A stretch of DNA of 64,000 nucleotides from Escherichia coli (GTDB lineage Bacteria > Pseudomonadota > Gammaproteobacteria > Enterobacterales > Enterobacteriaceae). Below, piece after piece: positions 48,801 to 54,800 of this stretch. The position numbers were made by a program. Where the stretch lies: the NCBI RefSeq assembly GCF_003991155.1, contig NZ_CP031293.1, one strand, 5' to 3'. Numbering within the stretch: position 1 is the first letter of the stretch; every line of letters starts with the position of its first letter.

Positions 48801-51800
48801 TTCATGGTCGTCACCGCCAGGTGAAATCCGGCTTCTTTTGCTGCCTTCACGGCTTTGTCATTAAATCCGCCAAATGGATAAGAAAGATACAAAACATGTG
48901 GATTAAATTGCGCCAGAGCGCGGCGTGAACGTGCAAAATCAAACAGAATATTGTGCTCACTACGGCTCAGCAATATAGGCCGCCGATAACCATCCACCCG
49001 ATGCAAAAAATGAGTATGTGACTGGAAATCAAATACATCGCGAATTTCGTTAAGTTCAGAAACGCTCATAAATTGCAGCGATTTTGGGTTCCATTTCTGC
49101 GGGTGACGTTTGATGCGCGAGGTAACAATAAACGCCGTCGCCTTCATACCATATTGTTTCAACACAGGATACGCATAGCGGCTCACCGACTTGAGGCCAT
49201 CATCAAAGGTAATTACCACCGCTCGCGCAGGGAGATTGATCTTATTCTTCACGTAACCTTCCAACTGCGCCATGCTCAGTGTCGCGTATCCCCTGTCGCG
49301 CAGCCAGGCCATCTGGTTATTGAAAGCGCGTACCGAGGTGGTCGTCGAAGTATGGCGAAAACGGGTGTTTTCTTCGTCGCGCAAAATATGGTGATAGGTT
49401 AGCACCGGCAGGCCATTATCGGGTTGGGCATCCAGCGCGCTGATATAGGCCAGTCGATCGCCAATACGGATCTGATACCAGGTTTGATTTAACCTGTCTT
49501 TCAGTTTATGCAAAATCGGGTAGCGCAAATTGTCCGCCAGTACTCCAAATGGCGCACTGCCCACACTCGGTGCGTTATAAACCGGTGTATCTTTCCAGGT
49601 TATTAAGTTCTGATTACTCAGCGGCTTGTTGAGGTCACCCAAACCATCTTCAACTTTTTGTCGCCCCTGAACCGGCTCGAGATGGCCTTTATCGATAAAC
49701 CCTTTACCAAAGCCAAAATTAAATGCGTAATAACTTGCGGCAGTGGGCTCCACGGCAATGATTTGCCCGGCCCGAATATTCCCTACCGTCACCATTTTGT
49801 CGCCAATTTGCGCCCAGACCGCGGCATTTTCGATGGTTTGCATATAACGGGCAGGTAATGCGGCACTGACGCTTGCGGTAAACAGCATCAGCAGGAGAAT
49901 AACAGCTTGTTTGTACATGAAAAAATAACCGAGGGTGAAACAACGCTTTTATTGTAGCAAAAGCGTCATCAGGATCGCGGGTTAATACTCATACAAATTA
50001 TGTTTGAGGACGAAAGGCGGATTTTTTTGTTGTTGGTGCCAAAGACTACTGACCTCCGGCGCACCCAGTTCGACAATTCGCTCGCGAAACTCAGCGCTGG
50101 ATAATGTTTCACGGTAGGCCAGCATCTGTTCAACTAACGGTAACGTTACCCCAGAAATCACTTCACAGCGGGAGTGTTTGTGGCTTAATAGCGAAGCCAC
50201 GCGGTACGGCGGCGCTCCGGCAATATCAGTTAAAAAGATCACCCCATCGCCAGAGTCTGCTTCATGCAGAGCATCGCACATCATACGGCTGAGCATATTA
50301 GAACTTAATCCGCGCCAGAAATTCACGGCCCGGCACTGAAGAAGCGCCCCGTGTTTTTTCTCCAGCGCATCCAGTATCTCTTGCGCCCGATCATCGTGAC
50401 AGGTAATAACCCAACCTAGCATCGCCTTCCTCCTTAGCCGAAAATCAGTCTACCCTGACCATGGTTGATAAAGGGTGATAGTCGTCAAAACTCCTCTCCC
50501 CCGAATCCAGAGGAGAGGAAATAGCCTTAGCTACGCAGACCACGCCCACGTTGGATCAGCGACCAGCAAATCAAATAAAACGCCACAATAAAGACCACCA
50601 GTACGCCAAAGGTAGTGACCAGCGGCACATCATTGATACCGAGGAAGCCGTAGCGGAAACCACTGATCATATAAACGATCGGGTTCAGGTGCGACAGTCC
50701 CTGCCAGAACGGCGGCAGCAAAGTCAGGGAGTAAAAGACCCCGCCCAAATACGTAAGTGGCGTTAACACAAAGGTTGGCACCAGGCTGATGTCATCGAAC
50801 GTTTTGGCAAACACGCCGTTCAGCAAACCCGCAAGGGAGAATAGCACCGCAGTGAGCACCAGGGTTAAGGCAACGAATACCCACGAATGCACCTGAAACG
50901 GCACAAAGAACAGCGAAATTGCTGTCACCAGCATGCCAACAAGCAGACCACGCGCCACGCCACCACCGACATATCCGGCAATAATGACATGAGTCGGAAC
51001 CGGCGCTACCAGCAGCTCTTCAATATTACGCTGGAACTTGGCACCAAAAAATGATGAAGCGACGTTGGCGTAGGCATTGGTGATTACCGACATCATGATC
51101 AGCCCCGGCACGATGAACTGCATATAGCTGAAGCCATGCATATCGCCGATGCGCGAACCAATCAGGTTACCGAAGATAATAAAATAAAGGGTCATGGTGA
51201 TGACCGGTGGCACCAGCGTCTGCACCCAGATACGCATAAAGCGATGGATCTCTTTCGCCCAGATGCTTTTTAGCGCCACCCAGTAAAGATGCATCATGCG
51301 CGATCTCCTTGTTTTTCATTAACCAGTGAAACAAACAGCTCTTCCAGACGGTTAGCTTTGTTACGCATACTTAATACCTGAATGCCCTGCTCACTTAACT
51401 GCGTGAATACGCTGTTGATCCCCTGCTCACGCAGCACTTCAACTTCCAGCGTGGCGGTATCTACCAGTCGATACTGATAGCCATCGAGCTTCGGTAACGG
51501 ACTTTTCGGTGCGAGATCGAGAATAAAGGTTTCTGATTTCAGCTTCGCCAGCAGCGCCTTCATCGAAGTATTTTCCACCAGCTCACCGTGTTGAATAATG
51601 CCGATATTGCGGCACAGCATTTCTGCTTCTTCCAGGTAGTGTGTGGTGAGAATGATGGTGGTGCCTTTGTCGCTTGAATTGTCAAACCAAGTGCAACGAT
51701 TTTTTGAAGTAAACTTCATAAGGTGTTTTCCAACCTAAACATTTACGTGGTCGTAAATTCAGTTTATTGATCACCTGTTGAATATCAACTTCGCTCCACT

Positions 51801-54800
51801 GATTGATGTCTTGGTGCTTCGGAAAGTATTCACGAAGTAACCCATTTGTATTTTCATTCGTTCCCCGTGTCCACGGTTGATGCGGCTCGGGGAAGTAAAA
51901 TTCTACACCCAGTGCTTCTGTTACCAAACGATGTTGGGCAAATTCTTTACCACGGTCTGGCGTAATTGACCGCAATATATGTGAATCCAGCAATTCAATC
52001 ATGGCTTTTTGGACTGCTTCGGCTTTTTTGGCAGGAATTTTCTTCACCAACTCAAAACGACTTTTGCGTTCCGTCAGCGTCAGCAAACAAGCTCCACCCG
52101 CTTTACCCAGTACGGTATCGGCTTCCCAATGTCCAAAGCGACTGCGATTTTGCGCCGAAATGGGACGGTCGTTCAAATGGTTGGATATCTGAATTTTGCC
52201 ACGTTTTTCATGATGATTTTTTGTATGCCGTGTTTTGCCTTTGTGGCGCAGTTTGCGACTGGCTTTGCGTTCGCCTATATCAAACAACCCTGAATAAATA
52301 CCACGATAAATGGTTGAATAACTAATGGATAATTCAGATTTTTCCAATTTTAATCGTGCGCTGATTTGTTCGGGCGACCAGTTTTCTGTCAGAAACTTTT
52401 CTTGCACCAAATTGAAATATTCAGGCTGCTCTAATTTGCGCTGTGCTTTGCTATTTTGACGATGCTTCAAATAGCTGTTTTGTGCGTTCGTTGCACTGTA
52501 GCTTTCTAGAGCGTGTCGTTTCAGCTCGCGAGAAATGGTGCTGGAGCTACGTCCCAGTGCTTTGGCAATTTCTGCTTGTTTTTTGCCCTGTGCGAGTAAA
52601 ATCATTATCTTTTCTCGTTCGTTTATTGTAAGATGTCGGTAGGAAGTACTCATCATTTGGAAATGGTTTTTGTGTGGAAACAAAATTATATTCTAGTTGA
52701 TGAGTACTTCTTTTTTTGTTGCACTTGGATTGTAAATTCAGCCGTTTAAATCCTTCAAAAAGCCCCACATTGAGCGGCGAAGTTCAATATCCACGCCTGC
52801 GGTCGGTTCGTCGAGAATCAGTAGTTTAGGTTCATGCATTAACGCACGGGCAATCATTAAACGGCGCTTCATCCCGCCAGATAACATACGCGCACGTTCG
52901 TTGCGTTTTCCCCATAGATCGAGTTGTTTAAGATACTTTTCGCTGCGAATGTACGCTTCTTTGCGCTCCACACCGTAGTACCCTGCCTGATTCACCACAA
53001 TTTGCTGCACGGTTTCAAACGGGTTGAAGTTAAATTCCTGCGGCACCAGTCCCAACTGACGTTTAGCGTTGACGACATCCTTCTCGAGATCGTAACCAAA
53101 TACGCTGACCCGCCCGGAGGTTTTATTTACCAGAGAGCTGATAATACCGATAGTGGTCGATTTCCCGGCCCCGTTCGGCCCGAGAAGCGCATAAAAATCA
53201 CCCGCTTCGACCTGCAAATCTATTCCACGAAGCGCCTGAACGCCGCCTGGATAGGTTTTTTTAAGCTGTTGAAGTTCCAGTGCAATGGTCATAAATTTTT
53301 ACTTACCTTACGTTCTTACACTTTATCTGTGGTTTAAATCGTCCCGGAGTTGCCCTATATTAGCCAAACGTAATTATTTGGTTACAGGTCGTTAACCTCC
53401 ATGAAAGACATAGATACACTCATCAGCAACAATGCACTATGGTCAAAAATGCTGGTGGAAGAGGATCCCGGATTTTTTGAGAAACTGGCACAAGCGCAAA
53501 AACCGCGCTTTCTATGGATTGGATGTTCCGACAGTCGCGTTCCTGCAGAACGTTTAACCGGTCTTGAGCCGGGCGAACTCTTTGTTCACCGTAATGTTGC
53601 TAACCTGGTCATTCACACTGACCTGAACTGCCTTTCCGTGGTTCAGTATGCAGTGGATGTTCTCGAAGTTGAACACATTATTATCTGCGGCCACTACGGT
53701 TGCGGCGGCGTACAAGCCGCAGTTGAAAACCCGGAACTGGGGCTTATCAACAACTGGCTGCTGCACATCCGCGATATCTGGTTCAAACATAGCTCATTGC
53801 TCGGCGAAATGCCGCAAGAGCGCCGTCTGGATACCTTGTGTGAACTGAACGTCATGGAACAGGTGTATAACCTGGGCCACTCCACCATTATGCAATCAGC
53901 GTGGAAACGCGGGCAGAAAGTCACCATTCACGGCTGGGCCTACGGCATTCACGACGGCTTGCTGCGTGATCTGGATGTCACAGCGACCAACCGAGAAACC
54001 CTTGAGCAACGTTACCGTCACGGGATTTCTAACCTCAAGCTGAAACACGCCAACCACAAATAAAAATGCCATGCCGGATGCAACACATCCGGCAACTTCA
54101 CACTTACTCGTCCAGCAGAATTACTTTGCCGATATACGGCAGATGACGGTAACGCTGTGCGTAATCAATGCCGTAACCCACCACAAACTCATCCGGGATC
54201 GAGAAACCGATAAATTCTACCGGGACGTTCACTTCACGACGGGACGGTTTATCCAGCAGCGTACAAATCGCCAGCGACTTCGGTTCGCGCAGGCTTAAGA
54301 TCTCACGCACTTTCGACAGTGTATTCCCCGAGTCGATGATATCTTCAACAATCAGCACGTCCTTGCCACGGATATCTTCATCCAGATCTTTGAGGATTTT
54401 CACATCACGGGTGGTGGACATGCCGCTACCGTAGCTGGAGGCGGTCATAAAGTCGACTTCATGAGATACCTGAACTTCACGGCACAGGTCCGCCATAAAC
54501 ATAAATGAGCCACGCAGCAGACCCACCAGCACCATATCGCTGCCGCTGTCTTTGTAACGCTCAGTAATCTGACGACCCAGTTCGGCGATACGCGCTTTAA
54601 TCTCCGCTTCGGGGATCATTACTTCTACAGTATGTTTCATATCTCTAACCATATGATTTAAAAACAAATCACTTCGCACGGGCAGGTTTTGGCACCGCAA
54701 CAAAGCGCAAGACACGCAGTATACCAGTAAAACTATTCATTCGCGGAATCTGTTAATAAAGCTCGAATTGTGATGACGATCACACATGTTAAAACCTATA

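Follow-up and report, generated by a model that had tools for sequence, protein, structure and literature searches.

We analyzed a 64-kb window of the Escherichia coli chromosome (64,000 nucleotides [nt] of contig NZ_CP031293.1 in RefSeq assembly GCF_003991155.1), which covers the acnB ... gcd-hpt-can-yadG-yadH-yadI ... fhuACDB ... rpsB-tsf ... cdsA region. Within this window, yadG, which encodes the ATPase of the ATP-binding cassette (ABC) transporter YadGH, is interrupted by a discrete 1070-bp block at positions 51673-52742 whose GC content is below that of its surroundings. A first-pass annotation of the window had described the block as an ISApl1-like member of the IS30 family, ISApl1 being the insertion sequence (IS) that mobilised mcr-1, a gene for resistance to colistin. 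Around the rejoined yadG, the gene order can-yadG-yadH-yadI is conserved.

The element within yadG

Read along the minus strand, the locus consists of the 5' part of yadG, the upstream inverted repeat (IRL), the transposase gene, the downstream inverted repeat (IRR), the 3' part of yadG, and yadH; the transposase gene, yadG, and yadH share one orientation (Table 1). The GC content of the element is 41.5%, compared with 49.4% and 51.7% in the 5-kb flanks and 50.9% in the whole window, and the lower GC content claimed in the first pass was reproduced when this check was run. Alignment of the left end (CTTGAATTGTCAAACCAAGTGCAACGA) with the reverse complement of the right end (GCTGAATTTACAATCCAAGTGCAACAA) gave inverted repeats of 27 bp with 21 matches and 6 mismatches, in agreement with the earlier description of a 1070-bp element with imperfect terminal inverted repeats. 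The published description of ISApl1 likewise gives 27-bp terminal inverted repeats with six mismatches (PMC5404521). The stop codon of the transposase gene (51682-51684) lies within IRR.

A single long open reading frame (ORF) on the minus strand occupies the element. Its 324-amino-acid product matches the NCBIfam model NF033563 (transpos_IS30) with 309 bits against a cutoff of 80 (E = 3e-92) and contains the Pfam domains HTH_38 (residues 5 to 48) and rve (residues 174 to 261). The residues D180, D234, and E268 are present, with 33 residues separating the second D from the E. This DD(33)E spacing is a hallmark of the IS30 family, and by family membership the three residues are predicted to be catalytic. 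One long ORF with IS30-family and DDE signatures is thus what had been reported as a single DDE transposase gene. All 324 residues are identical to those of the coding sequence annotated as WP_012478345.1 on plasmid pMRY15-131_2. The possible 307-amino-acid transposase mentioned in the first-pass annotation exists as a reading that begins at Met18 of this ORF (position 52605), but RefSeq annotates 324 amino acids, and the shorter reading would cut 13 residues from the start of the HTH_38 match. The copy in the window is intact and apparently transposition competent; its unbroken ORF and its two inverted repeats would suit an active element.

A minus-strand promoter-like site lies across the junction at 52729-52758, with its -35 element (TTGAAG) in the yadG flank and its -10 element (TACAAT) inside IRL. 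The site has an 18-nt spacer and a 9/12 match, is a consensus-level prediction, and is directed into the transposase gene.

TABLE 1 Features of the interrupted yadG locus (positions in the window)
Feature	Position	Strand	Basis or remark
Complete ISApl1 (IS30 family), 1070 bp	51673..52742	-	Near-identity, ends, length, GC 41.5%
IRL, 27 bp	52716..52742	-	Alignment of ends, 21/27
IRR, 27 bp	51673..51699	-	Alignment of ends
Transposase gene as read in RefSeq, 324 codons and a stop	51682..52656	-	0 amino acid differences from WP_012478345.1
Private synonymous single-nucleotide polymorphism (SNP)	52618		Plus-strand T versus C in all compared copies; codon 13 GAA, not GAG
Target-site duplication CG, yadG 3'-side copy	51671..51672		Corresponds to yadG nt 549-550
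Target-site duplication CG, yadG 5'-side copy	52743..52744		Directly outside element end
yadG 5' fragment, nt 1-550	52743..53292	-	Identity to MG1655 yadG
yadG 3' fragment, nt 549-927, with H-loop region TTHYLE	51294..51672	-	ORF and motif positions
yadH (ABC-2 permease), intact	50527..51297	-	Start overlaps yadG stop (ATGA)

Identity of the element and its target site

Comparison with the ISApl1 copy that lies just upstream of mcr-1.1 on the IncI2 plasmid pMRY15-131_2 (NZ_AP017622.1) revealed identity at 1069 of 1070 nt. ISfinder counts elements with >95% nucleotide identity as one IS. A megablast search of PLSDB returned 449 plasmid records, 443 of which match at 99% identity or more and 403 of which cover at least 80% of the element; the matches are annotated as "IS30-like element ISApl1 family transposase." Full-length identity of 99.9% was found to 403 plasmid records and to 327 E. 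coli records annotated as ISApl1. Besides Escherichia, Salmonella, and Klebsiella, the hosts of the PLSDB matches include Actinobacillus, Glaesserella, and Pasteurella, and the plasmid matches in the last three genera fit a Pasteurellaceae origin of the element. Our assignment draws on the RefSeq and PLSDB annotation together with the published description. The name ISApl1 proposed in the first pass therefore stands, on 99.9% identity over all 1070 bases to annotated ISApl1, some copies of which adjoin mcr-1.1.

All 21 of the other ISApl1 copies that we fetched are exactly 1070 bp long and have the same terminal 20-mers as the copy in the window. Each of the 21 has C at the position equivalent to 52618, and the matches listed from PLSDB and from the 5426 complete genomes of E. 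coli include no copy that is 100% identical; because of these two results, we regard the SNP at 52618 as private to the copy in the window. It could serve to mark sister copies inside the same genome. In the complete genomes, ISApl1 occurs in 234 (4.3%), at 932 places, of which 636 are chromosomal; a single genome has as many as 41 places.

The two yadG fragments measure 550 nt and 379 nt, which together equal 927 + 2, and deletion of the IS with one CG restores a 927-nt yadG ORF. The rebuilt gene has 10 synonymous differences from MG1655 yadG and no amino acid differences. Alignment of the flanks, as recommended in the first pass, thus returned a clean empty site encoding a protein identical to K-12 YadG, in support of the exact split claimed there, and the claimed 2-bp CG duplication is present at both element ends.

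The target also resembles those of other ISApl1 copies, which are AT rich with a central GC bias and are duplicated over 2 bp (PMC5404521). For comparison we used 10 chromosomal ISApl1 copies from complete E. coli genomes that were not chosen by flank similarity. Each of the 10 measures exactly 1070 bp and has the same ends. Perfect 2-bp direct repeats flank 8 of them, and there a T-run (-6 to -3) and an A-run (+4 to +8) lie on either side of a center biased toward G/C. The site in the window, cCTTTGT[CG]TTTAAAtcc, fits this pattern of T-run, GC center, and A-run. An earlier sample of flanks, ranked by alignment extension into the window flanks and hence biased, gave the same picture and was not relied on.

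Copies that lack matching 2-bp flanks were also encountered, on pMRY15-131_2, NZ_CP070902.1, NZ_CP053720.1, NZ_CP032992.1, and NZ_CP025048.1. The pMRY15-131_2 copy is in the mcr-1-adjacent arrangement, and the left flank of the NZ_CP053720.1 copy is the same as that of this mcr-1-adjacent copy, as expected for composite-transposon remnants. These copies suggest Tn6330-derived arrangements or rearrangements between copies after insertion.

Taken together, these results led us to conclude, with a probability of about 0.96, that the element is ISApl1 and that an intact copy transposed into the chromosomal yadG gene, with the consequences and the likely donor described here. The element is already known, and its private transposition into this core gene is an ordinary event. 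Judging from what is known of ISApl1 and the IS30 family, a single intact ISApl1 would have transposed into yadG between nt 548 and 551, with duplication of the CG at nt 549-550. A transposase with HTH-HTH-DDE architecture (HTH, helix-turn-helix) would bind the 27-bp terminal repeats, and the element would be excised or copied as a circle or an IS dimer with joined ends. Integration would then take place at an AT-rich site with a G/C-rich center, where a 2-bp staggered cut and its repair would produce the duplication. Donor and timing of the insertion are matters that we infer; most likely the element came from an ISApl1 carried by an mcr-1 plasmid or present at another place in this genome.

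Consequences for YadG and YadH

The insertion leaves a truncated yadG ORF (52738-53292) of 184 amino acids, consisting of YadG residues 1 to 183 followed by a glycine, with translation ending at a TGA inside the IS (52738-52740), three bases past the element edge. The truncated protein keeps the Walker A (residues 38 to 46), LSGGM (137 to 141), and Walker B (157 to 163) motifs and loses the H-loop region TTHYLE (192 to 197) and the entire C-terminal domain. Because the break at residue 183 precedes the H-loop, loss of YadG function is expected; from general knowledge of ABC transporters, the truncated ATPase is very probably inactive, and the YadGH ABC-2 transporter very probably nonfunctional. 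The inactivation of the ATPase claimed in the first-pass annotation is accordingly a strong inference.

yadH has its own AAGGAG ribosome-binding site 7 nt upstream of its start, and a promoter and terminator scan predicted no terminator-like site within the IS on the minus strand; because of these two features, some expression of yadH by read-through is plausible. The same scan, which reports consensus-level matches, found 6 promoter-like sites versus 3.3 expected. Transcripts from the yadG or transposase promoters may read through into yadH, which may then be translated from its own Shine-Dalgarno sequence, probably at a reduced level. A polar effect of the insertion on yadH, which the first-pass annotation had raised, is plausible but no more than a possibility.

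We also observed a 141-amino-acid hybrid ORF on the minus strand (51294-51719). Its ATG lies in the part of ISApl1 next to IRR; from there the ORF shares the last stretch of the transposase gene, in a different frame, and then enters the 3' part of yadG in frame (MKFTSKNRCTWFDNSS-DKGTT...). A clear Shine-Dalgarno sequence is not apparent. If translated, this ORF could restore translational coupling to yadH.

yadG is close to universal in the complete E. coli genomes and is in one piece in 5422 of 5426. YadGH is annotated as a putative ABC transporter only, and a literature search on YadG and YadH function yielded incidental mentions only. The insertion represents a natural knockout of a poorly characterized transporter.

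Lineage, alternative explanations, and related systems

The backbone of the window places the strain near known mcr-1 carriers. With the IS removed, the window has no substitutions over about 62.9 kb relative to strain 2016C-3878 (NZ_CP029747.1, 555500-620000), a human rectal-swab isolate from the USA that carries mcr-1.1 on plasmid NZ_CP029748.1 and has three chromosomal ISApl1 places; a literature search for this strain found no paper. Apparent mismatches at 51673 and 51676 were dismissed as spurious extension of the alignment into the IS. Over 24.7 kb on the left side of the IS, about two dozen genomes match the window with equal scores, among them AR Bank #0349, MRY15-117, and MRY15-131. 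The latter two are Japanese bovine strains of sequence type 457 (ST457) with mcr-1 on IncI2 plasmids (PMC5430464), and about 20 equally scoring genomes beyond these ST457 cattle strains come from humans, poultry, pigs, and water. From the backbone, an ST457-like lineage appears probable for the strain, the window containing no locus used in multilocus sequence typing. Sequenced members of this backbone lineage, identical to 2016C-3878 and ST457-like, carry mcr-1.

Only two indels, both of the slippage type, distinguish the window from 2016C-3878. One is an extra 8-bp TGATGGCG unit at 43352-43359, part of a tandem duplication at 43340-43359. Through it, a fimbrial-like gene of 198 codons in the yad fimbrial operon is broken into ORFs of 110 and 91 amino acids (43022-43354 and 43351-43626), in what looks like a slippage-type frameshift. 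The other is one extra copy (46964-46975) in a 12-bp tandem repeat of TCCCTTCTGAAA-type units at 46935-46978, within a small hypothetical gene beside rpnC; being in frame, it is a length polymorphism without disruption.

mcr-1 was found in 441 of the 5426 complete E. coli genomes, and 17 of the 19 ISApl1-bearing strains among the first 30 matches listed are also among the first 60 mcr-1 matches listed, an overlap that is sampled from listed strains and is not a full count. That the strain has met the ISApl1/mcr-1 mobilome, as the first-pass annotation proposed, is well supported but indirect, through this overlap and a backbone shared with mcr-1 carriers. On the same grounds, the advice given there to search the rest of the assembly for mcr-1 is sound.

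Nothing in the analysis contradicts the identification of the element, although some results limit the interpretation. None of the 5426 complete E. coli genomes has ISApl1 at this position, no record covering at least 80% of a 1670-bp query that spans both junctions; a search for protein records identical to the 184-amino-acid truncated YadG returned none, and a scan of metagenome contigs with the 32-nt left junction gave 0 matches. Because the junction is absent from these genome, metagenome, and protein records, the insertion is without independent confirmation. Since the analysis covered the window, carriage of mcr-1 by the strain is no more than an association. An assembly artifact, in which an ISApl1 repeat contig was misplaced within yadG, would account for the missing junction, and an element present at up to 41 places per genome can confuse assemblers. 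Misplacement, however, would yield neither a precise 2-bp duplication at a preferred target nor an exact 927-nt ORF upon removal of the IS, and the copy in the window has a private SNP. Because of the duplication, the exact empty site, and the SNP, an artifact is unlikely, and we allow it very little probability. The element could instead be a different IS30-family member, native to Enterobacteriaceae and merely similar to ISApl1, since the family is common in E. coli and family-level profile matches would suit any member. We rejected a native relative, the chance of which is negligible, because the element agrees with annotated ISApl1 at 99.9% of nucleotides over 1070 bp and its transposase at 100% of residues, because annotated copies lie on Actinobacillus, Glaesserella, and Pasteurella plasmids, and because only 4.3% of complete E. 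coli genomes have it, which is not the distribution of a native core IS.

Two further explanations were considered. The element could be one arm or a remnant of a Tn6330-type composite (ISApl1-mcr-1-pap2-ISApl1), with mcr-1 beside it in the chromosome; ISApl1 often directly adjoins mcr-1, and the complete E. coli genomes contain 66 chromosomal mcr-1 places. Yet the 64-kb window contains no second ISApl1 copy, and neither mcr-1 nor pap2 was detected there by tblastn with MCR-1 or blastn with the mcr-1/pap2 cassette. The same CG flanks both ends of the single IS and yadG resumes at once, as in a simple IS insertion. Tn6330 at this locus was rejected for want of two copies bracketing mcr-1-pap2, and its likelihood is minute. 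Alternatively, the insertion might have been selected, and not carried along as a neutral hitchhiker, if cells that are exposed to colistin or express MCR-1 gain from loss of the YadGH exporter, for example through compensation for envelope stress or for the cost that lipid A modification imposes. Disruption of a gene that is uninterrupted in 5422 of 5426 genomes is unusual, the lineage is associated with mcr-1, and adaptive loss, if true, would explain the break in a nearly always intact gene. Against this stand a single private event with no parallel insertions, the lack of literature on YadGH function in our search, and the high activity of ISApl1, which enters many genes at random AT-rich sites (PMC5404521). 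Adaptive loss, for which the rarity of yadG disruption is the one positive argument, has a slim chance of being correct.

Simple transposition of ISApl1 into yadG is the explanation that we retain. ISApl1 is the element that mobilised mcr-1 and is rare among complete genomes of E. coli, where it is mostly found together with mcr-1, so a chromosomal copy is a practical flag for present or recent transferable colistin resistance and for an active IS reshaping the genome. The specific insertion in yadG is, in addition, a private marker useful for tracking the clone. The finding matters for epidemiology, in flagging the mcr-1 mobilome in a backbone like those of ST457 and 2016C-3878 and in marking the clone, and not for mechanism; its interest is modest.

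The element shares with IS30, the E. coli prototype, the features that are general in the IS30 family: one ORF that occupies the element, an HTH at the N terminus, a DD(33)E core, terminal inverted repeats, and a 2-bp duplication. IS30 is about 1.2 kb long; unlike IS30, the element in the window is ISApl1, is ~150 bp shorter, and is of Pasteurellaceae origin. Compared with the ISApl1 of pMRY15-131_2 and of several hundred plasmids and chromosomes, it has the same length, ends, 27-bp repeats, and 324-amino-acid transposase. It differs from the pMRY15-131_2 copy in having T at 52618, in being solitary, and in lying in chromosomal yadG with no adjoining mcr-1. Tn6330 shares the ISApl1 module with this locus; unlike Tn6330, the window lacks a second copy, mcr-1, and pap2, and the duplication flanks a single IS. 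A close parallel comes from serial isolates of mcr-1-positive E. coli ST617, in whose chromosomes Snesrud et al. (2017) described solitary ISApl1 insertions that disrupt iraM, astB-like, araB-like, and other genes (PMC5404521). Those insertions, like the one in yadG, consist of a single IS without mcr-1 that disrupts a gene, with a 2-bp duplication at an AT-rich target with central GC bias; the insertion described here differs from them in its target, yadG, and in its host backbone, which is identical to that of 2016C-3878 and ST457-like.

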